From Myxococcota bacterium (GTDB lineage: Bacteria; Myxococcota_A; UBA796; GCA-2862545), in NCBI GenBank assembly GCA_039208735.1, contig JBCCQY010000125.1, forward strand, positions 1 to 26,854: DNA of 26,854 nucleotides. Reading direction: 5' to 3'. The translations under genes and the position numbers were made by a program. Within the stretch, counting starts at the first letter, position 1, and each line of letters begins with the position of its first letter. The notes beneath the pieces were generated by a model. The model was not told the DNA's origin and ran no database searches. It worked only from the letters and a program-made list of their open reading frames with translations. Positions 6,491-23,602 of this stretch are shown one piece after another.

Positions 6491-9400
6491 CTATGCGGGC
6501 GGCTCGGACCTTGACGTCTCGAGTGTGTGGACGAGTCCTCGCAGCTCCCCGCCCGATCCCATCGGCAACGCTTCCATCAGTGTCCGCGCCTGCATGAGCG
6601 CATCCTCCGCGGAGGTCGCATCTTGCTTTGCCAATGATGCGAGCCCCCATCGGCACAAGGCACACCCGAGCGTGGTCGTCTGTCCAAGCGCATGCAACGC
6701 ATCAACCGCTTGCCGCGCGAGCCGCACCGCGCCTTCGGGGTCGGTTGGGATCAAGGCCTGAGCTAGACACGATTGGAGTTCGGCGGACTGCCTCGCGGCT
6801 CGACCGGACTCCACGAGGGCGAGGGCTTGGCGGAGGTGGGCCTCGGCCGTCGCATGGTCTCCGCGGGCCAGCGCGACGCGTCCCAGTGCGCCGCGTGCGA
6901 TGCCCTCATGGACGGCACGGCCCATCTGCTGGAATCCCTCAAGGGCTTGTTGAAATGCGGCTTCGGCTTCGTTCCATCGACCAAGCTGAAGTGCGGTTTC
7001 GCCAAGGTTGTAGCGCGCCCCTTCGGCCTGGGCGCGTTCCCGAAGGGCGACAAAGCCCGATCGCGCAAGCTCGAACCAACGCCGCGCGGCGTCCATATCA
7101 CCGAGGTAGCCCGCAATGGTGCCCAGTCGGTTTGCCTGGGTGGCACTTGATGAGCGGTTGCCCTTGCGACGACTTCGCTTGAGGATTCCCTCATGGAGCG
7201 TTCGGGCTTCCGTAAAGCGCCCTTGTTCGAGCCGGATGAGGCCGAGCATGTCGTCGGGGTCTGTGGAGTCGAACGGCACTTCGGCGAGATGATACGCCGT
7301 GCGATGCCGTTCGAGGAACGCTTCGGCTTCCGCGAGACGGCCTTCCACACGGCAGATTCCGGCCAGATTGTAGTGGATCCGAGACTCGAGCCAGGGGGCT
7401 TGCGCGAGTCGAGCCAGTGACGCCGCCTCTTGGAGTTCGGCCCACGCACCATCGAGGTCCCCACGCCGAAAGGCTACCCATCCGGTGGCGGAACGCAGAT
7501 GGGCTTCTGCGAGCGCATTGGGGACGCGTTCGAGCAGGGCTTCGGCCCGGGCTAATCGCGGTGCGAGCTGTCCCCGAGGGGCGGCGTCCACGGTGTGGCG
7601 AATCCACTCCCCAAGGGCAATCCCCTCGATGTCGGGGTCATGCGCATCGCGGCTCACGCTGATCGCTGCCTGGGCGGCTTCGTCGAGCGGGGAGCCGCTG
7701 GTGGACAGGAGGCTCCGCATTCGTGCGAGCGCAAACCGAGACCGCAGCGTGTCATCGAGGTCATCGAGGCCCTTGGTGCGCCGAAGCAACGAGCGACCTT
7801 GCGATGCCAGCCCGCGCATGGACAGTACGGGAGCGAGCCACAGCAGAATTCGAACGCGAAGGTCGACCGAGAGATCAGGCGCTTCGAGCACCGCGAGGGC
7901 ACTAGGGACCTCGTGGGCGAGTGCAGCGACGCGGCGGGGGGAGGGGCCCCAGAACGGGGGCGTCGATGCGGACAGGGTAGCCAGGTAGCTTCGATGGGCT
8001 TCACCGACCGAACGCCGCAAGGCTTCGACGTCGTCGTGCAAGACCTCGGCCACGAACTCAGAGATCCCGAGAAAAGGGGTGAGACGGCCGTCGGCCGTCC
8101 GACGCAGTACCGCGAAGTCGACGAGACGTTGGAGCGAGTCGAGCGCCGGACCCTCGACCAAGCCAGCGGTGACCATCTCGGCCGCATCAGCTGAAAAGGT
8201 CCCCGGAAGCAGCGAAAGGGCAGCAAGACGTTGCTGGTCAGCGATGGACAGCGCAGTCCAGGTGCGCCCGATCGCTTGACGCAGGCCATCGGACTCGTCG
8301 CGCAGGACGTCGAGGGGGCGGTCGAGGCGGGCCACGAGGCCGTTGATGCCGAGCAGGCGCAGGCGGCCCGCCGCGAGGTCGAGAGCCAGGGGGTTCCGAT
8401 CCACCTCTTCGACGATCTGCGGGATGCGTTCGTCTTCTGCGTCGAGGGGTACGCCCGCCGCAGCCGCTCGGGTGACGAACAGTCCGATGGCCGCGGACGG
8501 CTCGAGCCGGTCGATCGTGACGATGCGTTCCAGAGCAAGGCCCGTCGGACGCCGCGAGGTCACGAGCACTCGAGCCCCTGGTGCAGCGCCGAAGAGTTCG
8601 TAAAGCACCTGCGCGACCGCGTCGATGGCGCCCTCGGCGTGGTCGAGGACGAGCAACAGATCGTCGCCATCTCGCAGGGCGGCATGCAGTCGCTCAGAAG
8701 GGCCCTCGGGGGAGGCGTCCACCCCGATCGCACGGGCGAGGGAGGCTGCGACCGTCGTTGGGGATCGGCCGAAGACTTCGAGATTGGCGTAGCAAGCCCG
8801 ACCGGGCCATGCTTGGGCGACGGCTCGGGCGACGGTGCTCTTTCCCGCTCCTGCCGGACCGTGGAGCGTCACGAGGGCTTCCGAGCGCTCCAGGTGGTCG
8901 AGAACGCTGCGAATCACTCGGTCGCGACCGACCACTGGACCGTCGGGGGGTGGGCAGGGGGTGCCGGAGGACGCCGTGCGCGCCTCGACGACGAGCGCCA
9001 AGCCGCGGCCCCGAATCGTGCGGAGATAGCGGGGTGAACCTCCTTCCTCGATTTTGGCCCGTAGGCGGTACACGAGCTTGTCGACGACCCTTCGTTGCTG
9101 CGCATCGTGGATGCCCCACACCTCCCGCAACAGATCGATCGTCGGCAGGGGACGACCCTCACGTGCGTACAGGAGTTCGAGTAGGCGACCTTCATGGTCG
9201 GTAAGGGTCAACGATGCCGCGCCTTCGCGCTCCACGATGAGCCGGTCGAGGTCCACGGTGTTCGAGCCCAGCCGGATTCGGCGAGACGAGGGGGCGGTCT
9301 CAAGCGGTACGAACCGGTAGCCAACCCCCCGAACCCCGACCAAATGAAATGGCCGGGAAGGGACACGCTCAATCTTCGCGCGAAGCCGTTTCATGGCATC

Positions 9401-9604
9401 GTCAACGGCGCGCGAGCGCACCGTGCTTGCGTAGCCGAGCACCTCGGTGAGCAAGACCTCGCGAGACACGTCTTCGTGGGGGTGCGCGGCGAGGTAGCCG
9501 AGGAGCGCACACTCCTGGGGGGTCAACTCGCGAGCTTCTCCATCGGAACGTTCCAGGCGGCCGAATTCGAGGTCCAGCCGTCCGATGGCGAGATCGAGAA
9601 TCAC
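6491..9604 (-). CDS. STAND-class ATPase/TPR transcriptional regulator with two tandem OmpR/PhoB-type winged-helix domains
   Basis: Two Trans_reg_C-like units (LTPQECALLGYL...VDDAMKRLRAKIE...VRGVGYRF; LTDHEGRLLELL...VDKLVYRLRAKIE...IRGRGL), Walker A GPAGAGKS, Walker B LVLDHAE, VTSR, NPLALDLAA, then TPR-like helices. GTG 9604 chosen as start; the track start is 9658. Confidence 0.88.
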   Translation of the reverse strand: MILDLAIGRLDLEFGRLERSDGEARELTPQECALLGYLAAHPHEDVSREVLLTEVLGYASTVRSRAVDDAMKRLRAKIERVPSRPFHLVGVRGVGYRFVPLETAPSSRRIRLGSNTVDLDRLIVEREGAASLTLTDHEGRLLELLYAREGRPLPTIDLLREVWGIHDAQQRRVVDKLVYRLRAKIEEGGSPRYLRTIRGRGLALVVEARTASSGTPCPPPDGPVVGRDRVIRSVLDHLERSEALVTLHGPAGAGKSTVARAVAQAWPGRACYANLEVFGRSPTTVAASLARAIGVDASPEGPSERLHAALRDGDDLLLVLDHAEGAIDAVAQVLYELFGAAPGARVLVTSRRPTGLALERIVTIDRLEPSAAIGLFVTRAAAAGVPLDAEDERIPQIVEEVDRNPLALDLAAGRLRLLGINGLVARLDRPLDVLRDESDGLRQAIGRTWTALSIADQQRLAALSLLPGTFSADAAEMVTAGLVEGPALDSLQRLVDFAVLRRTADGRLTPFLGISEFVAEVLHDDVEALRRSVGEAHRSYLATLSASTPPFWGPSPRRVAALAHEVPSALAVLEAPDLSVDLRVRILLWLAPVLSMRGLASQGRSLLRRTKGLDDLDDTLRSRFALARMRSLLSTSGSPLDEAAQAAISVSRDAHDPDIEGIALGEWIRHTVDAAPRGQLAPRLARAEALLERVPNALAEAHLRSATGWVAFRRGDLDGAWAELQEAASLARLAQAPWLESRIHYNLAGICRVEGRLAEAEAFLERHRTAYHLAEVPFDSTDPDDMLGLIRLEQGRFTEARTLHEGILKRSRRKGNRSSSATQANRLGTIAGYLGDMDAARRWFELARSGFVALRERAQAEGARYNLGETALQLGRWNEAEAAFQQALEGFQQMGRAVHEGIARGALGRVALARGDHATAEAHLRQALALVESGRAARQSAELQSCLAQALIPTDPEGAVRLARQAVDALHALGQTTTLGCALCRWGLASLAKQDATSAEDALMQARTLMEALPMGSGGELRGLVHTLETSRSEPPA

Positions 9605-9713
9605 GATACCGTTTAGCCCACCCGGACCAAGGAAGACGACTGCCACACGCCGGGACACTGCGGAGAGGTGGGTCTGCGTACGTCAGGAGCACCCCCAAAT
9701 CGGAGGTCCCCCC

Positions 9714-11873: not shown

Positions 11874-12686
11874 TCAACGATTCCGGTCAAACACCAACGA
11901 CACCGACAATGCCAGATCGTTCGGGTCGCCACGCACCACCTCATCACCATCGTCGTACGTCTGTAGCGGCGTCCAAAGTACGGCCGTCTCGAGAAAGAGG
12001 GGGCCAGAAATTGCCGTGCGAGCCCCGAGGTGCAGTCGTCCTTCCTGGCGAACGCGATAGCGTCGTTTGGCCTCCGCATCTGCCGACCAGATCGACCATT
12101 CCCAGTGGGCCGCAGAGAACAGCTCAAACCCTGGTGAAGCGCGCATGGCCAGTTCGGCGTAGCGCGGGAGCAGCAGGTCGAACCGCCATCGCCCACTGCG
12201 CCAGAAACCGCCGACCACGGGAAGCGGCGCGACTCCGAACCCCTGATGCGTGTAAAGGAGGGCGGCCGACAACCCACCTCGGGGGCCGGCGGTCCACGTG
12301 AAGCCCGCGCGCAAGTTGGGGTAGAGGGAACCGACGCCACCGAGGGTTCGGTCGGCCCAAACCACTCGAGCATCGAAGTCCAGCGCGACGCGAGGCGAGA
12401 TTCGAGTGGACCAGGGCACGCCTACCTCGACGCGGTAGAGGTCCTGCAAACCCTGGGCTCCCATGATTCGATCCTGGCGAACCTGGCCGATGAACGCTCC
12501 CGTTGTGCTCGTTCCGATAGTGAACGGGACGGCGGGAGATGCCGCCAAAGTGCGACGCGTGACGCTGCCCGAAGGGCGCTCATCGATCCGAGCCACCTCC
12601 TGGAACGGGAACGGCGTAAGGGTCAGTGGATCCGGAATCGGCGCCGATGCTTCCACGGTTGCCGCCAAAAAAAGAGGGATGAGCAT
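11874..12686 (-). CDS. Outer-membrane beta-barrel protein (DUF6268-like)
   Basis: GGAGG then ATG 12686; short signal peptide; amphipathic strands; PLPVVGGFWRSGRWRFDLLLPRYAEL motif. The family name is recalled from motif resemblance only. Confidence 0.72.
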   Translation of the reverse strand: MLIPLFLAATVEASAPIPDPLTLTPFPFQEVARIDERPSGSVTRRTLAASPAVPFTIGTSTTGAFIGQVRQDRIMGAQGLQDLYRVEVGVPWSTRISPRVALDFDARVVWADRTLGGVGSLYPNLRAGFTWTAGPRGGLSAALLYTHQGFGVAPLPVVGGFWRSGRWRFDLLLPRYAELAMRASPGFELFSAAHWEWSIWSADAEAKRRYRVRQEGRLHLGARTAISGPLFLETAVLWTPLQTYDDGDEVVRGDPNDLALSVSLVFDRNR

Positions 12687-12700
12687 GGGAACCTCCGTCA

Positions 12701-12756
12701 GATTGACGATGTCAATCATGGGTGAGGGATATCTCTATGATTGACGATGTCAATCA
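12701..12756. promoter_or_regulatory. Two identical palindromic operator-like sites, GATTGAC-GAT-GTCAATC(A)
   Basis: The exact 18-mer GATTGACGATGTCAATCA occurs at 12701-12718 and 12739-12756 (38-bp period), immediately upstream of the RBS of the beta-barrel gene. Each copy is a 7-3-7 inverted repeat. Confidence 0.85.
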
Positions 12757-13125
12757 AAAGGCCGAGATTCATGAAAGATTAGGTTTAACGTTTATTTCGC
12801 GGCGGCGGACTTCGTCGCTACGTTGGAGGCTTAGTCATTCCACCCGATCGAGTTCAGGAACCTCGTCTTCCACGCGTGGGGTCTCGTCTCATTGTATGGA
12901 GTGTTCATTCATTGCGCAGGCCCGCTCCAGAGGCTGGCCATTACCGGTGGGTGAGCCAGAGGCCCTCTCCATCGACACACCGAAGGGGGCCGATTCGTTC
13001 AGCAGGGCTGGGCCAGCGAAATTCGTGATGTCATTCTGGACGTTGACGGCGCACTGGGAGGCGTTCTTCCCTAACGCTGGGCCTCGCTATGGTACCGTCT
13101 GCGGCAATAATCGCGGAGGGACGTC

Positions 13126-15534
13126 ATGGTCGTTTTGCTCATCGCCGCAGAGTTCATATCCACGGCCTACGGGCAATGTGCGGCGACAGTAAACCGGGAC
13201 TTGAACTGCAATGGGGTTGCCGAGGCGGATGAGTTGCCCGTCGACCTGGCGGATCCGGAATGCGCGTCGAACCTGGATTCACAGAACGTTCCCTTCCAGA
13301 ATCGAGACCACTACTATGATTACGCGTCGTACGGCTGTGCGATTCTGCTGGAGGAAGCTCAATACGATCCCGACGGCGACGGTTTCGGTTCAGGGTTGAT
13401 CGTCCTTCCGCCCAATAGCCCTTCGCCCACCCAGATCTTCCTCTTGGAGTGTGACCTCTGCCCTCAGACGGCCAATCCGCTGCAGCAAGATCTCGATTGT
13501 GACGCCGTCGGCGATGAGTGCGACAACTGCCCCGCGATCCCCAATGTCGGCCAAGTCGATCTCGATGCCGATGGTCTGGGTGATGAATGCGATTCCTGCC
13601 CTTTCCTGCAGCAAGCATCCGATGCGGATGACGACGGCGATGCCGTGGGCGATGAGTGCGACAACTGCCTTGGGGTTGCCAACCCAGACCAACAGGACCT
13701 CGATGCCGATGGTCGAGGAGACGCCTGCGACATGTGCCCCGAGGTCTTCGAGGAAAGCCCAAGCGATCGTGATGGCGATGGGATCGGTGATGCCTGCGAC
13801 CTTTGCCCCGGCACCGACAACCCCGACCAGCTCGACACCGATGGGGATTCGTGGGGAGATGCTTGCGACAACTGCCCAATGGTGGCCGATCCGACGCTTC
13901 TCGACTCGGACGACGACGGCATCGGCAATGTGTGTGACTCCTGCCCCTTCCAAGGCGACCCCAAGGACCTCGACACCGATGCAGACTTGGTGGGCGATGC
14001 CTGTGATGTCTGTCCGGAAGTCGCCGACGACCAGGCCGACCTCGATCTCGACGGGGTCGGTGATGCTTGTGACAACTGTCCCCTCGCTCAGAACCCCGAT
14101 CAGGCGGACGTTGATTCAGACGGTCTGGGTGACCTTTGCGACAATTGCGCGTGGATTCGCAATGCGGGCCAGCAAGACACGGATGGGGATGGCATTGGGG
14201 ATGCCTGCGTACCCGTGGCGTTGCCGGCCGCACCGTCTCCAGCGGGGTGTGGTTGCACGGCAAGTCCAAATCCCCTGGGCTTCGGCGGAGTGGGGTTGCT
14301 CCTCTTGAGTGGTCTGATCGGACTGCGACGACGTCGCATGGTCGCGATGGGACTCGTCTTCGGTGGGATGGCCCTGATGCCGTCGATGGCCCAGGCCCAA
14401 TGCGCGGCCACGGCGACCCGAGACGTGAACTGCAACGGCATCGATGCGGCCAATGAAGCGAGCGTCGACTTGCAAGATCCGGTGTGTGCCGCGAACAGCA
14501 CCCTGACCTCGGTGGATGACTACTTCGACTACGGGTCGTGGGGGTGTGCGTTTCCTGTCGATGATCCCGACCAGGATGGCTTTGGTGAGGGCATCTTGCT
14601 GCTCCCTGGGGGTGGGGTGGTCCTGTTCGAGTGCGACACCTGTCCCGGCCTCGCAAACCCAGATCACCTCGACGAGGACTGCGATGGGGTGGGCGATAGC
14701 TGCGACAATTGCGTGTTGACCCCCAACGCAAACCAGCTGGACCAAGATGGTGACCTAATTGGAGATGAGTGCGACGAGTGCGTGTTCGACGCGGGACCCC
14801 AGGGAGATTCCGACAACGACGGCGTTGGGGATGGGTGTGACAACTGCCCGTTGGTGCCCAATCCGCTGGCCTCCGACACGGACGGCGACCGCATTGGGGA
14901 TGCTTGCGACAATTGCATCGTCACCTTCAACCCTGATCAAGGCGATCTCGATGAAGATGGCATGGGCGACGTATGCGACCTGTGCCCCGCCCTCGAAGAC
15001 ACCATTCAAGTCGACACGGACGTCGACGGCGTTGGCGATGCATGCGATGTATGCCCGGACGCGCTCGACGATCAAGCCAATTCGGATGCCGACGTGCTTG
15101 GCGATGCTTGCGATAACTGTGCGTTTGTATCGAATGCCGACCAGGCCGACCGTGATGGCGATGGAGTCGGGGACGCCTGCGACGTGTGCCCCGACCAAAC
15201 CGACCTGCAGGTCGATGCTGAGGGCGATGGCATCGGGGACCCCTGTGACAACTGCCCAACCGTGGTGAATCCTGACCAAGCGGACGTCGATGGCGATGGT
15301 ATCGGTGACCTCTGTGACAACTGTCTGGTCGTTCCAAACCCCAGTCAGGCCGACCTGGAGGGCGATGGCATCGGCGATGCGTGTGTTTTGGTTCCGCAAG
15401 CGCCTGTGGTGACGGTCAGCGGTTGCTCGAGCACAGGAATGCTGCCGATGGGAGGGCTTACTTGCCTGGGCCTCGTGGCATTCCTGCGTCGACGGAAGGT
15501 GGCCCTCGGTTTGACGGGTCACCCCACCAAGTAG
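13126..15534 (+). CDS. Thrombospondin type 3 repeat surface protein made of two complete tandem modules, each ending in a MYXO-CTERM-like signal
   Basis: GGAGG RBS; signal peptide ending AYG|QCAAT; 11 DxDxDxxGDxC repeats; GCGC-TM-RRRR; second signal ending AQA|QCAAT; 11 more repeats; GCSS-TM-RRRK. Confidence 0.93.
14245..14397 (+). other. Internal MYXO-CTERM-like anchor fused to a second signal peptide
   Basis: Reads [51 protein letters not shown] in frame, with no stop codon and no obvious RBS before ATG 14338. Confidence 0.8.
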
Positions 15535-16022
15535 TCAGCGAGGTAGACCGCCGCGAAGCGCCAGTTGCGTTCGACGGTGCGCGTCGACACGTCCAGCACC
15601 TCCGCGATGTCCTCGTGGGTCATGCCGCCAAAGATGCGCATGAGCGCAACCTCGGAGGCCCGTACATTGATGGATTGGAGCGCGTCGAGCGCCCGGTCGA
15701 CGTTCATCGCATCGAGGACGACGTCGGGGTTTCCGGGCAGGCCACTTAATGTGACCCGCTGCAGGTCTCCGCCCCGCTTTAGGGCGCCGATGTGCCTTGC
15801 TCGGTCGACCAAGAGTTGGCGCATCGCACGAGCTGCCGTGGCCATGAAGTGAGCTTGAGACTTGTATTTCGATGAGGAGCGCGCGAGCTTCAGCCAGGCC
15901 TCGTGGATGAGCACCGTCGGTTGCAGCGTGGCGTGGCCGAACCCGTGGCGCGCGTAGATCCGCGTAGCCATCTCGTGGAGCTGGGCGTAAATCGCTTCGT
16001 TGAGGGGGGCGGGTTCGGGCAT
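15519..16022 (-). CDS. ECF sigma-70 factor, TIGR02999-type (Ser/Thr kinase-associated)
   Basis: [36 protein letters not shown]...KRGG, region 4 [22 protein letters not shown]. The start may be at 16022, 16031 or 16034. Confidence 0.93.
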
Positions 16023-16045
16023 GGGGCTCACCAAGCTCCGCCCCT

Positions 16046-19000
16046 CTATCGCGGCTTGTCGCCCGAAGCGTCGCGCTGAAGCCGCTGCGCAACCCTTTGG
16101 AGCTTCACGATGACTTCCGCATGGGACTCAAGGGCCATGCCTGCGATGGTTCGGCGCGCGTCGTCCATGGCCATGTGAGCTCGCTCTGAGGCACCTCTTT
16201 GGGCTTCGAAGAGGGCCCGGTCGCAGAGCAGCAACGCCAACTCGTAGCGGTCTTGGGCCTCGCGAACGATTCGTTCGGCCTCGTCGAGTTCGGCACGCCC
16301 TGCCTCCGCGTTGTCGAGGCACCGGGCGCGCAACGCCATCAGTCGTCCGAGGGGGATGGGGTCGTTCAACGCGCGGGCGGTATCCAACCCGCTGTCGTAG
16401 ATTGCACGGGCTTCCTCGACGTTGCCACGGGCATCGCATAGCTCGCCCAGGTAGGCGTGGATCCAAGGTTTCTTGGCATGACGGGTATCGACGAGGGAGG
16501 TCTCGAAAGCGTCCCTTAGGAACGGTTCGGCTTCGTCGAGTCGCCCGTCCATCACCAGCAGGTGCCCGAGTTCGGTGCGAGCATTCTGCAAGGAAAGCAT
16601 GTGTTGCCGAGCCTCGGCGAGTTCCACGGCCCGGCGAAGCTGGGGCTCGGCCTCCGCCCGTTGGCCCCTGCGGTGCAGCACGTAGCCGAGAAAGGCCACC
16701 AGATGCACCTCGTTATCGAGACCCCCGACTTCAGCGGCGAGCCGGAGCGCGCCACGGATGCGTTCGATGGCTACGGGGTAGTCCCCTTGGGATTCGGCGA
16801 CGGTGGCCAATCCGATGGTCCAGTTCGCGACGGACATGGCATCGTCATTGTCGTGCGCGTGCTGAACTGCGGATTCGTAGCACTGCCGAGCCTCGGAGAG
16901 CCTTCGTTGGCGGAAGCGAAGGTTGCCCAGCATGCCGTACAGGTAGGACAGAAACCGTGGGCGTCCCCCCGTCTTCGACAGCGCAACGGCCTCACTGAAA
17001 CGCTGCTCCGCTTGTTCATGCTGACCTCTTGCCAACGCCAGGCGGGCCAGGCGGAGGACGGGAACGAGCACCACGTGGGCCCGTCCATCGCGGCGCGCGG
17101 CTTCCTCGGACTCGGTAAACAGCCGCTCCACTTCGTCCCAACGTCCTTGATCGGCCGCGTGTTCTCCGAGGTAGCCGAGGTTGGAGGACAACTCATCGTG
17201 GAGTCCCGCGGTTCGAGCCAGTTCGATCGCCTCGAGGTGCGCTTGCGCGGCGACACCCGCCGACTCGATGCGGTTGAGGAGTCGGCCCTTCTCGCGAAGG
17301 AGGGGCGCTCGAAGATGCGGTTGTTGTATGACGGGTAGGATCTCGTCGAGAAGCTCGATTCCGGAACGCGCCGGACCACGCATGTAGAAGATGTCGCTTG
17401 CGCGGACGCCGGTTCCCGAGGCGATGGAGGTCTCACCTCGCCGTGCGGCCCGACGCGCAGCCGCGATGAGGTTTTCATGTTCGAGATTAAACGCGCGTTC
17501 GGAGCGCTCCGACGTCGCGAAGGTGTGGAACCAGGTGCCGTGGCGCCGTTCGGCCTTCGTGGGATCCGCGAGTTGCGCGGCAGCAAAGGCCTGAACGCTC
17601 ACCAGCATTCGCAACCGTCCTTCCTCATGGCGCAGCAGTCCTTTGCTGATGAGTTCGGCGAGGACGTCCTCGACCCAGCCCGTGGTTGCGCCGAGGTCCA
17701 CGACACCTTGGGCCGCCTCAACGGTGAACCCATCTTCGAACACCGAAAGCTGAGCGAGCACCGAGCGCTGGAGCGGCGTGAGGAGTTCCCAGCTCCACTG
17801 CAACGTGGCCCACAAGGTGCGGTGACGTTCGGGAAGGTCGTTCGCCGCGGTCCGCAGTACGTCAAAGCGTCGGCTCATCCGGTCGAGCAACGCGCGAGGT
17901 GACAACAGGCGGCTTCGCGCGGCGGCAAGCTCGATGGCGAGCGGCAGCCGATCCAGGAGATGGACGAGCTTGACGAGGTGGGCGCGGTGTTCGTCTGGCG
18001 AGAACCGATGGTTGACCTCGCGAGCTCGTTCCGCGAAGAGCTGGAGTGCCTCGCTCTCCGGGAGCAGATCCAGCGGGCAATGCTGCTCGCCGTAAAGCTG
18101 CAAAGGCGTTCGACTCGTCACGAGCACGCGCAGCGTAGGGACGAGGTCAAGCCAGTGCCCAACCGTCTCGGCTGCATGGTCGACGATCTGCTCGAAGTTG
18201 TCCAAGATGAGGAGCATCGGACCCAGCGATCGAAGGGCTTCGACCACCTGCGCATCCGGATCCCGACCCCGGGGAACGCCCAACGCATCGGCCGTCGCCG
18301 AGCGGATGCCTTCTGCCGAGTGGGTGTCCGCGAGTGGCACCAGACGGACACCGCCTGCCCACTCGCCATGAAGCTGTCGACCGAGTTCGATGGCGAGCCG
18401 GGTCTTGCCGAGGCCTCCAATGCCCAGGAGCGTGACGAGTCGGTGGCTGCGCAGCCGTGTGGCAACGTCGGTCAGCGCCCCACGGCGGCCGATGAAACGA
18501 TTTCTTGGGGTGGGCAACGTCAGCGGGTTGGGGTTCGGCGACGATGGGATGGGCTCCTCGCCGATGAGCACGCCGTTGGGGGCTTCCCAACGGGTTCGCA
18601 GGGCTACACAGCTCGACGGTCGATCGTCGGGTCGTAGCCGAAGACCCGCATCGATCGCCGCTCGCCAACGCAGGGGCAGGGACTCAGGGAGTTGAGGCCG
18701 TCGCCCTTCGAGGATGGCGGTCAGCGTTTCCCCGTTGTCGGCGCCCTCGAACGCTCCGCGACCCGTCACCATGCGGTACAGCAGGCAGCTGACGGCCCAG
18801 ATATCGACGCGATGATCCACAGCCCGGACCTGGCGAATCTGCTCAGGGGCCATGTAGGCAAGGGTGCCGACCCAGGCTCCGGTTTGGGTGAGCCGCGCGT
18901 TGGGGCTCCGACCATCGATGGCCTGCGCAATGCCAAAGTCCGCGATTTTAGGCACGTACCGCGTCCCCTCACGGGCTAACAGCACGTTGCTGGGCTTGAT

Positions 19001-19606
19001 GTCCCGGTGGATCAACCCTGCATCGTGAATCGCCTGCACCCCCGCGAAGATTCCCAACGCGATGGCGTCGATTTGACTCTCCGAGAGTGCATGCTCCCGC
19101 AAGAATGCAGAGAGGTCGGGGCCGTCGACGAGTTCGGTGAGCAGCGCAAGACGGCCGTCGACTTCGAGGAGTTCTTGCACCGTCACCACGTTCCGGTGTC
19201 GTACATCGTCTTGGAAGGCTCGCTCACGGCGCATCCGTTCGCGAGAGACGGGCCCGTTGAGTTCGAGGACCTTCAGCGCGTGGGGCTGCCAAAGTTCGGT
19301 ATCGAAGACTTTCCAGACCGAGGAGGTGCCGCCGCGACCCAGCAACGCCTGCACTTCATAGCGGCCTTGCACTCGGGTTCCGAGTTCGAGCTCCACCGCC
19401 TGAAGTCCCGTGGAGGCTGCGACGGCACGGTCCAAGGCGTTCTCGATCGTGCTGATCGAGGTCTCATCCAACAATCGAGACACGAACTTGCGTAGCTCGG
19501 CGTCGCCTTTACACGCTTCGTCGAGGGCGCGGGCCCGGGACGCCCCTTCGAGGTCGGCGATGGCCATGAAGACCGAGTAGGCTCGCTGATAGTCTTGTCC
19601 TTCCAT
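16046..19606 (-). CDS. Hanks-type Ser/Thr kinase fused to STAND ATPase and TPR domains
   Basis: GGGAGG then ATG 19606; N-terminal RARALDEACKGDAELRKFVSRLL; kinase motifs GRGGTSSV, ALK, HRDIKPSN, DFG, APE; Walker A GIGGLGKT, LILDNFE, VTSR, LPLAIELAA; TPR-like C-terminus. Confidence 0.94.
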   Translation of the reverse strand: MEGQDYQRAYSVFMAIADLEGASRARALDEACKGDAELRKFVSRLLDETSISTIENALDRAVAASTGLQAVELELGTRVQGRYEVQALLGRGGTSSVWKVFDTELWQPHALKVLELNGPVSRERMRRERAFQDDVRHRNVVTVQELLEVDGRLALLTELVDGPDLSAFLREHALSESQIDAIALGIFAGVQAIHDAGLIHRDIKPSNVLLAREGTRYVPKIADFGIAQAIDGRSPNARLTQTGAWVGTLAYMAPEQIRQVRAVDHRVDIWAVSCLLYRMVTGRGAFEGADNGETLTAILEGRRPQLPESLPLRWRAAIDAGLRLRPDDRPSSCVALRTRWEAPNGVLIGEEPIPSSPNPNPLTLPTPRNRFIGRRGALTDVATRLRSHRLVTLLGIGGLGKTRLAIELGRQLHGEWAGGVRLVPLADTHSAEGIRSATADALGVPRGRDPDAQVVEALRSLGPMLLILDNFEQIVDHAAETVGHWLDLVPTLRVLVTSRTPLQLYGEQHCPLDLLPESEALQLFAERAREVNHRFSPDEHRAHLVKLVHLLDRLPLAIELAAARSRLLSPRALLDRMSRRFDVLRTAANDLPERHRTLWATLQWSWELLTPLQRSVLAQLSVFEDGFTVEAAQGVVDLGATTGWVEDVLAELISKGLLRHEEGRLRMLVSVQAFAAAQLADPTKAERRHGTWFHTFATSERSERAFNLEHENLIAAARRAARRGETSIASGTGVRASDIFYMRGPARSGIELLDEILPVIQQPHLRAPLLREKGRLLNRIESAGVAAQAHLEAIELARTAGLHDELSSNLGYLGEHAADQGRWDEVERLFTESEEAARRDGRAHVVLVPVLRLARLALARGQHEQAEQRFSEAVALSKTGGRPRFLSYLYGMLGNLRFRQRRLSEARQCYESAVQHAHDNDDAMSVANWTIGLATVAESQGDYPVAIERIRGALRLAAEVGGLDNEVHLVAFLGYVLHRRGQRAEAEPQLRRAVELAEARQHMLSLQNARTELGHLLVMDGRLDEAEPFLRDAFETSLVDTRHAKKPWIHAYLGELCDARGNVEEARAIYDSGLDTARALNDPIPLGRLMALRARCLDNAEAGRAELDEAERIVREAQDRYELALLLCDRALFEAQRGASERAHMAMDDARRTIAGMALESHAEVIVKLQRVAQRLQRDASGDKPR

Positions 19607-19678
19607 GGTGCGCCCCTCCCTAAGTTCGGAGCACAATCCTTGAAACGGAGGAGCGCCAAAGCTGGGGCACCTTTTTAG

Positions 19679-20295: not shown

Positions 20296-20853
20296 ATGTC
20301 TCAGATGCGCATTCTCTGTGTCGGCCTGTTGCTCACCGCCTGTGCCGGCGACCGCGAAATCTCGGTCACTCGGGTGTTCCCATTTTCGGCTGACGTCGTT
20401 TACGAGACCGCCATGGCGCGTTTTGGCGACGCCCATCGCATCAGTCCCCACATGTTCAACGTGCGCTACCTCGATGGTGCTGAGGCGCCTGCGGTCGGGG
20501 TTCAGCGTGAAGTCTGGACCACCGAAGATGGCGACTCCTTCATGCACGAAGAGCTGCTGACGGTCGATCCGGAGAATCGGTACATCCAGATCGCCATCAT
20601 CTATGCCGAAAAGGTTCCCGTCAACACGGATGAGAGCGTGGTTGAAAGTACGGTCACGCCCATCGACGAGGAGACCAGTAGCTGGACGACGAACATGCTT
20701 TTGCGCACCCGGCCAGCCTTCCTGGGCACCTTTGCGGAGGGCGGGGTTCAGTCCGACATCGAGGACATGTTGATTGGGCTCGAACACCACATCTTGACGG
20801 GCGAGGACATTACGCCCGAGCGTTTCGAGCAGATCGAGGCTGACTACCGCTGA
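20296..20853 (+). CDS. SRPBCC (START/polyketide cyclase-like) domain lipoprotein
   Basis: GGAGG then ATG 20296 (alternative 20305); lipobox LLTAC; ISVTRVFPFSADVVYE...VGVQREV...HEELLTVDPENR and C-terminal helix DMLIGLEHHILTG. Confidence 0.82.
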   Translation: MSQMRILCVGLLLTACAGDREISVTRVFPFSADVVYETAMARFGDAHRISPHMFNVRYLDGAEAPAVGVQREVWTTEDGDSFMHEELLTVDPENRYIQIAIIYAEKVPVNTDESVVESTVTPIDEETSSWTTNMLLRTRPAFLGTFAEGGVQSDIEDMLIGLEHHILTGEDITPERFEQIEADYR

Positions 20854-22361
20854 CGGCGGCGGCGGCGGAGGAGCCACGCCATGCCAAAGCCGAGACCAAG
20901 CCAGCGGGTCGGTCCCGTCGAACAACCCCGGTCCTCGCCCCATCGATCGGCCACCCCCCAAATCTCGAGGTCTCGGGAAGGATTGGGGGCAAACCCCAGC
21001 CTCGGCATGGTGTCGATGCAGGAGAGATCGAGTTCCGCACTCGGATTCGCAAGGAACTGAGTGTAGATCGATGCGGGGCACTCGCCCTGGTTGAAGGTGA
21101 CGTGGAACGCTTCGGGCACGGCCACAAAGGTCTGGTGATCTGCGTTGAGCCACTTGGCCCGATCCCGAGCTCGATCGAGCGGCATGGTGGGATCGAAGCC
21201 ACCGTGCATCACCAACATGGGCACGTCGGTGAGGGGAGGGGCTCGATGGTCCGGTCCGGGCTCGGTGCTGGGCCAGTCGGCAGCGAGTTCACCAAAGGAC
21301 AAGGTGACTTCCGTGGTCGCAATCGACTGGTCGACGGTGGCCCGAAGCTCCGACTGAGGAGGGGTCGGGCCCCAGAGGTCTGTGTAGGCGATGTGCCGTT
21401 GGAGGACGGGGGCGTGGGTGGGGTCTTCTTGGTCCCCTTCCTCGGGAAAGAGGGCGTCAAAGAGGTGGATGAACGCACGAACATCACGCCGTTTGCAGCG
21501 ACCGAGGCGATGCCAGACCACGGGAAGCTGATCGGCGGTGGATTCCGCCCCCAACAAGAAGACTCCGCCCAAGAGTCGGCCGAGCCGGGCATCGATCCCA
21601 ATGCGCGGACAGCGGCCTTCCAGCTCGGAAAACACCGTTTCCGCAAACTGGGCTGGGTCGGATCCAAGGTGGGTCGCACAGCTCGGGTCTTCGGTGCATC
21701 GGGCGGCGTACGCACGGGCCACCTCGTCAACGCCACGGTCGAACTCGAGAAACGTCCAGTCGGGTGGCACGACCCCATCGAGAATGACCGCGTCGGCCAC
21801 GTCCGGCTGAATCGCGATCATGCGATCGACCAGGAATGTGCCGTACGAAACGCCCCACAGCACGACAGGTCCGGCCTCTCGGAGGTCGTTCACCACCGCA
21901 ATGACATCGAGGGCCGTCTGCGTCGTTGTGAGTGTTGCAAGGCGCTCGTCGCCCTCTAGGCGTGCGGCACAGCGGGCCCACTCGTCGGGGTCAAGGGCCC
22001 GTCCCTCGGGACTGTCGGGGGCTTCTTCCTCTGCGCACCCCAGTCGCTCGCTAAACCCAACGCCTCGCACGTCGAGGCTCATCAGCGCGTAATCCGGGGC
22101 GATTTGTTCCGAGAAACCTTCCAAGTTCTGAAGGGCGGCCAGGCCACTGTCGCCCGGACCGCCCGTGATGTGCCAGATCTGACCGGTGGCGCCTGCTGCC
22201 GCTGGCTCGTAGCGCTTAACGGCAAGCGCGATGCGGGGACCATCAGGACGGTCGTGGTCTTGAGGAACCGACAGCGTTCGACACACGCCCACCGGATCCC
22301 CATCAGGACAGGCTCCCCATGGGGCAGCCGCCAAGACTGGAGCAATGAGGAAAGTCAGCAT
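20844..22361 (-). CDS. Secreted alpha/beta hydrolase, TAP-like peptidase family S33, with MYXO-CTERM-like tail
   Basis: Signal peptide; CRTLSVPQDH, GGPGDSG, DVRGVGFS, GVSYG, Asp in GGFDPTMP, His in AFHVT; C-terminus RGCSTGPTRWLGLGFGMAWLLRRRRRQR. Confidence 0.9.
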   Translation of the reverse strand: MLTFLIAPVLAAAPWGACPDGDPVGVCRTLSVPQDHDRPDGPRIALAVKRYEPAAAGATGQIWHITGGPGDSGLAALQNLEGFSEQIAPDYALMSLDVRGVGFSERLGCAEEEAPDSPEGRALDPDEWARCAARLEGDERLATLTTTQTALDVIAVVNDLREAGPVVLWGVSYGTFLVDRMIAIQPDVADAVILDGVVPPDWTFLEFDRGVDEVARAYAARCTEDPSCATHLGSDPAQFAETVFSELEGRCPRIGIDARLGRLLGGVFLLGAESTADQLPVVWHRLGRCKRRDVRAFIHLFDALFPEEGDQEDPTHAPVLQRHIAYTDLWGPTPPQSELRATVDQSIATTEVTLSFGELAADWPSTEPGPDHRAPPLTDVPMLVMHGGFDPTMPLDRARDRAKWLNADHQTFVAVPEAFHVTFNQGECPASIYTQFLANPSAELDLSCIDTMPRLGFAPNPSRDLEIWGVADRWGEDRGCSTGPTRWLGLGFGMAWLLRRRRRQR

Positions 22362-22408
22362 GCGCTAGGGACACCGAGGGGCAGGAGAAGCGGACCGTTT
22401 GGGGACGA

Positions 22409-23479
22409 CTAAGGAACCGAGTACGTACGCAATTGTTCGGCGGCCAATCGAATCTGGGGATCTCCCGACGTGCTGGCCGCTCCCGGCTCATAAGGCACAG
22501 CGCGGTCGACGGGAATGCCGCGCCCCTCGTACAAGGCGCCGTCCGCGGCTCGGTACCGATCGCCCGAGTAGGTGAAGTGAAAGCCGCGTTTGGGTAGGTT
22601 TGCAAAATAGAGGTCCGAGAGGTGTCCGCTGGTCGGTTCTCCCCACACCTCTACGCGAGAGCGCTCTCGCAACGCGAGGACCATGGTCTCGCCTGCGCTG
22701 AAGGTCCCGGGGCTCGTGAGCACGATGACCGGTCCCTCGAACGCACCGGGCTCGCTTGCCTCAAGCCACTGGTCTTCAAAGTCGGTAAGGTCGTCGTGCT
22801 CAGGACCGTTTCGTTGGGCGGTCGACCACGCGATCTGTCGCTCCCCTTCGATGCGGCGCGCGATGTCGAGTCCGACCGCATCCCAACCTCCTCCATTGAA
22901 TCGGACGTCCAACAGCCAACCTCGTGCGTCGCAAGCACGCAGCGTTTCGGTGGTGATCTGGTCGAGCAGAGCCTCGGCCCTTTGACGGTCACTGCGTTCG
23001 GAGCCCGAGCCCCCAAGGTCATCGAGCCAGCGAATGCCGAGGTAGGCAACTTGATCGAGGCAGGCCCACGTCCATGCGCCCTCTCCCCCGGACCCAAACG
23101 TGCCCACGTCGGCTTGCGTTCGCACCCACGCCCTCACAGCGGCTTCCTCGCCGTAGTGAGGCCACGGCTCTCGCCAGCCACGGGCATCTCGGTCTGGTGA
23201 TGACAACTGGATGTGCCCATCGTCGAGCGACTGGGCCATGCCCAGGAGCACGTCGAATAGGTCATCGTCAGAGGTGGAGGGGGTGACCTCGGCGCATGCC
23301 TGTCTTCCCAACGCAATCCAATCCTGATCGCCGAGCCGTGGATCGAACACCGCATACGATCGATCCAAGACACTCCAGAACTGGTCCACCACGCGATGAG
23401 GACGGGTCGTGTCTTCGCACACGACAGGGGTCGCACAGCCTGCGCAAAGGAACGGAAGGAGAACGCTGGACCATCGCAT
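22409..23479 (-). CDS. Peptidase family S41 lipoprotein
   Basis: GAGG then ATG 23479; lipobox CAGC; FWSVLDRSYAVF, LDDGHI, LDVRFNGGG, TFSAGE, VWGEPTSG, YEGRGIPVD. Confidence 0.92.
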   Translation of the reverse strand: MRWSSVLLPFLCAGCATPVVCEDTTRPHRVVDQFWSVLDRSYAVFDPRLGDQDWIALGRQACAEVTPSTSDDDLFDVLLGMAQSLDDGHIQLSSPDRDARGWREPWPHYGEEAAVRAWVRTQADVGTFGSGGEGAWTWACLDQVAYLGIRWLDDLGGSGSERSDRQRAEALLDQITTETLRACDARGWLLDVRFNGGGWDAVGLDIARRIEGERQIAWSTAQRNGPEHDDLTDFEDQWLEASEPGAFEGPVIVLTSPGTFSAGETMVLALRERSRVEVWGEPTSGHLSDLYFANLPKRGFHFTYSGDRYRAADGALYEGRGIPVDRAVPYEPGAASTSGDPQIRLAAEQLRTYSVP

Positions 23480-23602
23480 GTTGGACCTCGCTGGAAGTAC
23501 TCGCCGGGGTGATTGAGGCTGGATGCTGCTGACCGCGGTGGGACCCTTGTGGCGACCGGGCACCGAGGCGACCCCGGGATCCTGAGAAGCACCTCGCAAG
23601 GG

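Follow-up and report, generated by a model that had tools for sequence, protein, structure and literature searches.

The window analysed here is the whole of contig C125 (JBCCQY010000125.1; 26,854 nucleotides), which belongs to a 9.4-Mb metagenome bin (G000; 92.7% complete, 6.15% contamination) of an uncultured Myxococcota bacterium. On its + strand, at 13126..15534, lies an open reading frame (ORF) of 802 amino acids (aa), covered by contigs of sequencing run X1. The ORF holds two complete exported units and is predicted to encode a two-unit polyprotein precursor. A Shine-Dalgarno (SD) site read from the sequence precedes it on the same strand (13115..13120), with a duplex energy of -10.0 kcal/mol; all SD energies given here are those of the duplex with the consensus anti-SD.

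Two complete modules within a single ORF

All features of the ORF described below lie on the + strand. The ORF opens with a predicted signal peptide (signal 1; aa 1-16, 13126..13173) that ends in AYG|Q and lacks a basic n-region; short signals like it stand immediately ahead of the same Cys motif in stand-alone homologs. Signal peptides were judged by rule-based criteria of our own, and in a Kyte-Doolittle (KD) window of 11 residues signal 1 reaches 2.71. Module 1 begins with a Cys/Asp cap domain of no named family (aa 17-108, 13174..13449) and continues with 11 thrombospondin type 3 (TSP3) repeats, counted directly, matched by PF02412 and predicted to bind calcium (13450..14208). An internal MYXO-CTERM-like tag follows (14245..14337), consisting of GCGC (aa 374-377), a hydrophobic stretch (aa 384-400) and RRRR (aa 401-404, 14326-14337). 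Directly next to RRRR, the ATG of Met405 at 14338 opens a predicted internal signal peptide without an SD site (signal 2; aa 405-424, 14338..14397), which ends in AQA|Q. Module 2 then repeats the layout, with a cap domain (aa 425-502, 14398..14631), 11 TSP3 repeats (14632..15384) and a terminal MYXO-CTERM-like tag (15421..15498) made up of GC (aa 766-767), a hydrophobic stretch and RRRK (aa 788-791). The tail beyond RRRK (window 15487-15534) resembles the start of signal 2, with no clear alignment at the DNA level.

Across 383 aligned columns, the two halves share 49% of their residues (E = 3e-96). Specifically, both cap domains open with QCAATxxRDxNCNG, at aa 17 after AYG and at aa 425 after AQA, and both contain DYxSxGCA, at aa 65 and aa 468. 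Each module holds 11 G[DN]xC units, 11 C[DE]xC units and 30 Cys residues, and PF02412 scores 149 bits over the whole protein (E = 2e-44). In a cap alignment of 33 rows, the D-x-N-C-N, Cys and D-x-D-x-D columns are invariant. An AlphaFold model of the module 2 cap, made from 32 of these rows (one row with ambiguous bases was omitted), reaches a best predicted local distance difference test (pLDDT) score of 84.6, versus 36.6 for a single-sequence model, and thrombospondin-2 is its sole Foldseek match at E <= 0.001; an Atlas search with the cap gave no match at 0.9 or above. The module 2 repeats match structures of COMP and thrombospondin-1/2 by sequence (E = 1.5e-33 to 3e-14). Asp and Glu together account for 22-23% of the predicted products, which would consist largely of TSP3 stalks.

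The Arg tail of the internal tag runs into a predicted signal peptide

The internal tag carries the Cys signature of MYXO-CTERM (GCGC) and an uncharged helix (aa 384-400; KD window 2.34) that leads into an Arg cluster. It departs from a typical tag in position, with 398 residues behind it versus 11 behind the terminal tag; Haft (bioRxiv 10.1101/2023.06.07.544157) places true MYXO-CTERM tags near the C-terminus and holds lineage-specific models of them to be needed. The curated model TIGR03901 gives the internal tag (aa 373-404) 19.1 bits (cut-off 20), and TIGR03382 gives the terminal tag (aa 766-790) 13.7 bits (cut-off 15.85). With a lineage profile built from terminal tags only, the internal tag scores 15.8 bits and the terminal tag, which was itself in the seed, 26.6 bits.

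By the same rules as above, signal 2 possesses an h-region (KD window 1.94) and an A-x-A site, and its AQA|Q abuts the motif that opens the stand-alone homologs. In these homologs the mature part starts at the same Cys motif directly after the N-terminal signal, so Q425 lies at a natural mature start. Between RRRR and signal 2 there is no stop codon and no SD site: the energy before Met405 is -3.0 kcal/mol versus -10.0 at the first start, which is close to the background of internal Met codons (median -2.1, n = 187, with 32 at -4 or below) rather than to N-terminal starts of the same genome (median -7.3, with 27 of 35 heuristically picked starts at -4 or below). Both the two full modules, with all their motifs and GC-linker-helix-Arg ends, and the direct run of RRRR into a new hydrophobic stretch are thus as the preliminary description had them. 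It had also cast RRRR as the n-region of signal 2, a point that is less well supported: Lys and Arg are absent from the first six residues of 22 of the 35 N-terminal signal peptides of this genome, signal 1 included, and RRRR is for that reason unneeded as an n-region. More likely, it serves as a cytoplasmic loop that fixes the topology according to the positive-inside rule.

The same layout recurs in unrelated exported proteins

The terminal-tag profile finds about 55 terminal and six internal tags in G000 (contigs C36, C54, C93, C105, C125 and C164). Five of the six internal tags are followed by a clear signal-peptide-like segment, while that of C164 is degenerate. A rule-based scan with a codon filter, in which a signal peptide was not required, yields 63 terminal and 14 internal candidates; the latter were divided by eye into six polytopic membrane proteins and eight GC-type tags in otherwise soluble proteins (C2, C20, C26, C36, C93, C105, C116 and C125). 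A predicted signal follows all eight GC-type tags (five of the signal peptidase I type, three with a lipobox), versus one signal-peptide-like segment when the 63 terminal tags are read through past their stops, which places the layout above chance. The units joined in this way are unrelated to one another and include TSP3 and MopE-like adhesins, beta-helices, an MXAN_2561-like protein with an MXAN_2562-like barrel, and a TraB-like barrel with OmpA. Downstream units such as the MXAN_2562-like and TraB-like outer-membrane barrels and the OmpA domains need export of their own. In C2, C20 and C125, an internal and a terminal tag are both present.

The genome also encodes the enzymes that such a layout would call upon. 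A myxosortase-family gene on contig C62 scores 119.1 bits with NF040914 (cut-off 100) and has the EExxxR and HxxxN motifs, although it falls below the subtype cut-offs of MrtX, MrtP and MrtC. Additionally, three signal peptidase I genes and GspD of the type II secretion system score above their cut-offs. The MYXO-CTERM tags together with the myxosortase gene point to a Myxococcota-like organism.

Several of these loci have features of their own. One conserved fusion joins a tagged MXAN_2561-like protein to an MXAN_2562-like outer-membrane barrel (C116 at L071:390-3374, L080, L081, L084, L088, L097 and P0040), with 26-69% identity across genera and reaching another family. In C164 (L069:1875-2003, - strand), a fusion of an adhesin with a TraB-like barrel, the junction is one hydrophobic stretch with a single Arg and an A-x-A-like site, possibly a collapsed junction. 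In C54 (L067, C54:25268-22935), the unit before the internal tag is short, about 40-70 residues when counted from a plausible Met; a relative, P0032, has an equally short first unit followed by a TraB-like barrel with OmpA. On C38 (L070, C38:37086-46549), four larger TSP3 paralogs form a tandem array in which each is an ORF of its own and the frames differ; two of the four resemble the halves of the fused C2 gene.

Such junctions are retained in orthologs and spread across the phylum

The module family occurs in 58 of the 61 genomes searched, mostly as single-module genes. Orthologs of the C2 fusion stay in frame in two genomes of the same genus, G001 and G002; the junctions have diverged and lack an ATG, and all three keep the tag, the R cluster, the h-region and A-x-A|Q. 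The lipobox-type C93 fusion likewise has an in-frame ortholog in G001. At the junctions of this pair (C93, L065:1489-1677; G001, L028:5471-5653), a strong SD site (-11.9 and -9.5 kcal/mol) accompanies an in-frame GTG, and a second start inside the fused gene is possible there. G002 contains an unrelated two-module gene that bears a tag both internally and at its end and is the nearest analogue of the C125 ORF. Of 11 homologs from a protein search, three have a junction, one of them, P0006, being the G002 protein. A split form exists in G011, where a tandem pair shows RRRR, TGA, a 48-nt spacer including an SD site, and an in-frame ATG.

Junction profiles recovered 13 further junctions in 30 loci, the remainder being three training rows, 12 loci with a terminal tag only and two without a row. 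In a 150-genome sample of the phylum, 14 of 28 loci have a junction, from six families outside the class. A search of 1.84 billion protein representatives returned 28 matches, comprising 19 internal junctions, five terminal tags only, three training sequences and one spurious match; one of the 28, P0016, had no junction row on re-scoring, and a profile of this length gives the search little sensitivity: P0005 and P0007, two known junction proteins that were kept out of the profile, are absent from the 28. Among the proteins found, P0019, P0024 and P0027 are MYXO chains with three to four tags, and P0040 is a fusion whose barrel exceeds the MXAN_2562 cut-off. P0018, P0020, P0022 and P0037 are PEP-CTERM chains of 4-10 tags in which every internal tag leads into a predicted signal peptide, and three of these four are labelled Planctomycetales by their source. 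P0001 has no entry in the exact protein collection. The non-terminal tags followed by a predicted signal peptide that the preliminary description had proposed to seek in Myxococcota proteins are found widely, in this genome, its relatives and the phylum sample.

A-x-A is invariant across all nine aligned junctions of the signal peptidase I type, which were partly picked by that rule. Junctions from related genomes are kin rather than independent cases. Among 16 other junctions (17 were given; L079 has no row), five lack any in-frame start codon close to the R cluster. A metagenome scan with the junction region gave 17 loci, 15 matching in the TSP3 repeats only and two in a short cap stretch, with no junction evidence in any of them.

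Proposed processing of the precursor

We propose that the product of the ORF is probably a polyprotein, from which signal peptidase I and myxosortase would release two calcium-binding surface proteins, each with a lipid anchor of its own. In this scheme, Sec would export module 1, and signal peptidase I would cut at AYG|Q. The tag helix (aa 384-400) would stop transfer and leave RRRR in the cytoplasm, whereupon aa 405-424 would re-enter the membrane as an internal signal and restart export for module 2. Signal peptidase I would then cut at AQA|Q, giving a Q-C-A-A-T start identical to that of module 1, and the terminal tag would stop transfer once more. The tag cysteines C375/C377 and C767 would be lipidated as modelled for TraA, and myxosortase would cut behind C377 and C767. 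Both products (about 360 and 340 residues) would then travel to the surface through the type II system. Such a hairpin precursor cut by the two enzymes had been put forward in the preliminary description; recurrence of the layout in unrelated genes, its retention in orthologs and the presence of the enzyme genes support it, and the cuts themselves are predicted from sequence. By analogy, the products are most likely acidic, calcium-loaded adhesion or matrix stalks, and a role in adhesion or matrix cohesion, suggested by the description of the MtsC family, appears likely. Production from one chain would imply a 1:1 stoichiometry of the two.

More generally, we consider it reasonably probable that the junction is a reusable polyprotein linker of about 50 residues, in which the Arg tail of a normally C-terminal tag runs into a new Sec or lipoprotein signal, so that housekeeping signal peptidases and sortase-like enzymes would yield 2-10 separately sorted envelope proteins. 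Such a linker would have arisen in both the MYXO-CTERM/myxosortase and the PEP-CTERM/exosortase systems, and would account for about one in eight of the MYXO-CTERM tags in G000.

Several points weigh against the processing proposed for the C125 ORF. The case for cutting is built on the layout, its recurrence and the enzyme genes, and both tags score just below their curated cut-offs. The h-region of signal 2 is weak and Gly-rich, its KD window of 1.94 comparing with 2.71 for signal 1, and our signal rule also fired on two of the six polytopic membrane proteins. Myxosortase would need to accept a tag that is followed by a second helix. The C125 junction opens with an ATG, as expected of an ancestral separate gene, and an in-frame start codon lies nearby in 11 of the 16 other junctions, five of these with an SD energy of -4 or below. 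No two-module ortholog of the C125 ORF was present among the matches listed, which leave out 117 weaker ones, and the loci fetched from 60 relatives. Finally, the junctions found with profiles A1/A2 were preselected for a second signal, and they show spread rather than enrichment.

Alternative readings of the locus

The join in C125 may be recent, two old paralogs having been fused. A quick tree places module 1 together with the C93 and G001 modules (SH-aLRT 92) and makes module 2 their sister (90); this was a quick search only, with 20 of 47 inner branches unresolved. In line with the tree, module 1 is 61% identical to the C93/G001 modules versus 44% to module 2. Because module 1 groups with these modules rather than with module 2, the two are old paralogs, and their divergence therefore does not date the join. 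The divergence of the modules, formerly offered as a sign of selection, loses that meaning. Selection on the C125 junction is unproven, since no two-module ortholog was found among the listed matches and only the possible source run, X1, bridges the join. A stronger version of the fusion reading holds that tandem paralogs recently lost the stop, spacer and SD site between them, possibly neutrally, with their own signals perhaps still allowing processing, and without selection for the join. The closest single-module relative in G001 has its own terminal tag and stop among different neighbours, G011 displays the split state with stop, spacer, SD site and in-frame ATG, the C38 paralogs stand as separate ORFs, and Met405 occupies the exact spot of a former start. 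Plain loss of a stop, however, should leave the spacer and the SD site, neither of which remains, and elsewhere junctions of this type are kept from species to species. Moreover, in the strain-like contigs of runs X2 and X3, which include both modules and tag 1, none of the 24 listed codon changes examined is disruptive, although these contigs do not bridge the join. We regard this selection-free version as unlikely.

A second alternative accepts the export of both modules and denies the cut at AQA: module 2 would remain tethered at both ends, by the helix 405-424 and by its terminal tag, either in one two-armed membrane protein or in a product split by myxosortase only. The weak h-region of signal 2 and the hairpin geometry presumably offered to signal peptidase I would fit such an uncut form. 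It is harder to reconcile with the A-x-A found in all nine aligned junctions, even allowing for their partly rule-based choice, and with the lipobox present instead at other junctions, which amounts to retention of either type of cleavable signal. Outer-membrane barrels, furthermore, must be released from the inner membrane in order to reach the outer membrane, and such barrels follow some of the junctions. An uncut hairpin is accordingly a rather improbable reading.

In-frame initiation at the ATG at 14338 could instead make most of module 2, the locus then being two overlapping genes with a read-through form. Met405 abuts RRRR, aa 405-424 form a complete signal of the lineage type even without RRRR, and the strong SD site and in-frame GTG make initiation of this kind plausible in the C93/G001 pair. 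At C125 itself, the genome's preference for strong SD sites (27 of 35 starts at -4 or below) stands against the background-like -3.0 kcal/mol of Met405, ribosomes that start at 13126 must read through in any case for lack of a stop behind module 1, and many of the other junctions have no start codon. We give internal initiation at C125 little credence.

It is very improbable that the ORF is an artefact, with the assembly of the bin having dropped a stop or wrongly linked two paralogs: the genome is a bin with contamination and no independent run bridges the junction, but one X1 contig spans 13320-15800 at a depth of about 8 with 0 differences, 49% identity between the halves is too low for repeat collapse, and the same layout recurs widely.

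As for read support, which the preliminary description had wished to see over the junction, the X1 contigs match the window at 12900-13301 and 13320-15800 with 0 differences; the latter, a single contig assembled separately, bridges the junction, and X1 is itself a possible source run. No contig of the other three runs (X2-X4) bridges 14326-14400. Their strain-like fragments cover parts of both modules and reach into tag 1 as far as 14326, and tag 1 is intact up to that position in a strain-like X3 contig. Among the variants listed (40 of 87 for one run comparison), the 24 variant codons classed in strain-like contigs comprise 12 silent, 12 missense and 0 stop changes, and in the module 1 core of X2, seven of eight variant codons are silent. 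No holder of RNA was listed for this region, which is uninformative about expression.

Relation to known systems

Polyproteins are usually ascribed to viruses or eukaryotes, and a strictly terminal position is taken for granted in MYXO-CTERM and PEP-CTERM. In viral envelope precursors, internal signal peptides can split one chain, and FbcH of Bradyrhizobium is reportedly a polyprotein cut by signal peptidase, of which our literature search gave no description. That search, outside which most subscription journals lay, found no bacterial tag-signal polyprotein, and the internal-signal polyproteins it returned were only viral or of the endoplasmic reticulum. We know of no precedent in which a modular linker of tag and signal serves again and again in exported proteins that are unrelated to one another. 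The terms 'internal' and 'polyprotein' do not occur in the 2006 PEP-CTERM paper, nor 'internal', 'fusion' or 'polyprotein' in the Haft preprint (10.1101/2023.06.07.544157), as far as term searches went.

The nearest described case is MXAN_5598 of Myxococcus xanthus, for which Guo, Haft and Wall (mBio 2025; PMC11980579) report an internal MYXO-CTERM, termed atypical and rare. The protein is read there as a two-gene fusion whose N-terminal part is proposed to be processed and anchored at the surface; no second signal peptide or polyprotein is named for it in the sections consulted. MXAN_5598 shares the mid-ORF tag with the C125 ORF and its adhesin-tag-barrel layout with C54, C26 and C164 of G000, whereas in the C125 ORF both units are TSP3 modules, paralogous to each other and separately tagged. 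The same paper reports that MrtX cuts MYXO-CTERM in a Cys-dependent manner, even with a C-terminal FLAG tag, and works in E. coli; MYXO-CTERM substrates reach the surface via the type II system, and lipidation is part of the authors' model. Because MrtX works in E. coli, the polyprotein claim is directly testable. The internal tag of the C125 ORF resembles those of the MYXO-CTERM/myxosortase pathway (TraA, MrtX; TIGR03901, NF040914) in GCGC, the uncharged helix and the Arg cluster, and G000 has the enzyme genes. Sorting tags can likewise work away from the C-terminus in the LPXTG and PGF-CTERM systems (cited in PMC11980579 as refs 45 and 46).

Structures of thrombospondins and COMP (PDB 3FBY, 2RHP, 1YO8 and 1UX6) share with the modules the Asp/Cys-rich, calcium-binding type 3 repeats. 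Distinct from these, the C125 ORF is bacterial and has an unnamed cap and membrane tags, and the structural match is partial (TM-score 0.33). MtsC, a cohesion protein for which the literature search found no description, has in common with the ORF secreted TSP3 repeats with a MYXO-CTERM tag. An assignment of the ORF as an MtsC ortholog was considered and rejected: the whole ORF scores 352 against the NF047638 cut-off of 350, but its halves reach only 187.7 and 185.3 bits, and the pass arises because the repeats are doubled, each half matching best where the model covers the repeats.

Should the cuts be real, many long, apparently single envelope genes encode at least two proteins with different destinations (surface, lipoprotein or outer-membrane barrel). 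Annotation would then miss or mislabel such genes, and by score alone the C125 ORF would be called MtsC. Such fusions would in addition bring partners together, for instance an MXAN_2561-like and an MXAN_2562-like protein, or an adhesin and a TraB-like barrel. The C125 locus is one ordinary-looking member of the class, and its two-module gene, or the 50-residue junction from it, offers a compact substrate for studying myxosortase acceptance of a tag with a second helix behind it and the order of the two cuts.

Surroundings of the ORF in the window

A promoter and terminator scan of 12600-16200 yielded nothing above chance. The last 16 nt of the ORF are overlapped by a convergent gene for an extracytoplasmic function (ECF) sigma factor (15519..16034, - strand; PF07638, 103.6 bits), for which no role in the system is shown; within 15519-19636 (- strand), it stands beside a 1196-aa Ser/Thr kinase with AAA and TPR domains. 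Further downstream, an alpha/beta hydrolase (20844-22364, - strand) with its own terminal MYXO-CTERM tag (23.6 bits) adjoins an S41 peptidase at 22409-23599. Upstream lie a 1055-aa winged-helix/AAA/TPR regulator (6491-9658, - strand) and a divergently transcribed gene (11874-12719, - strand) for a 281-aa exported protein that has no Pfam match and is beta-barrel-like.

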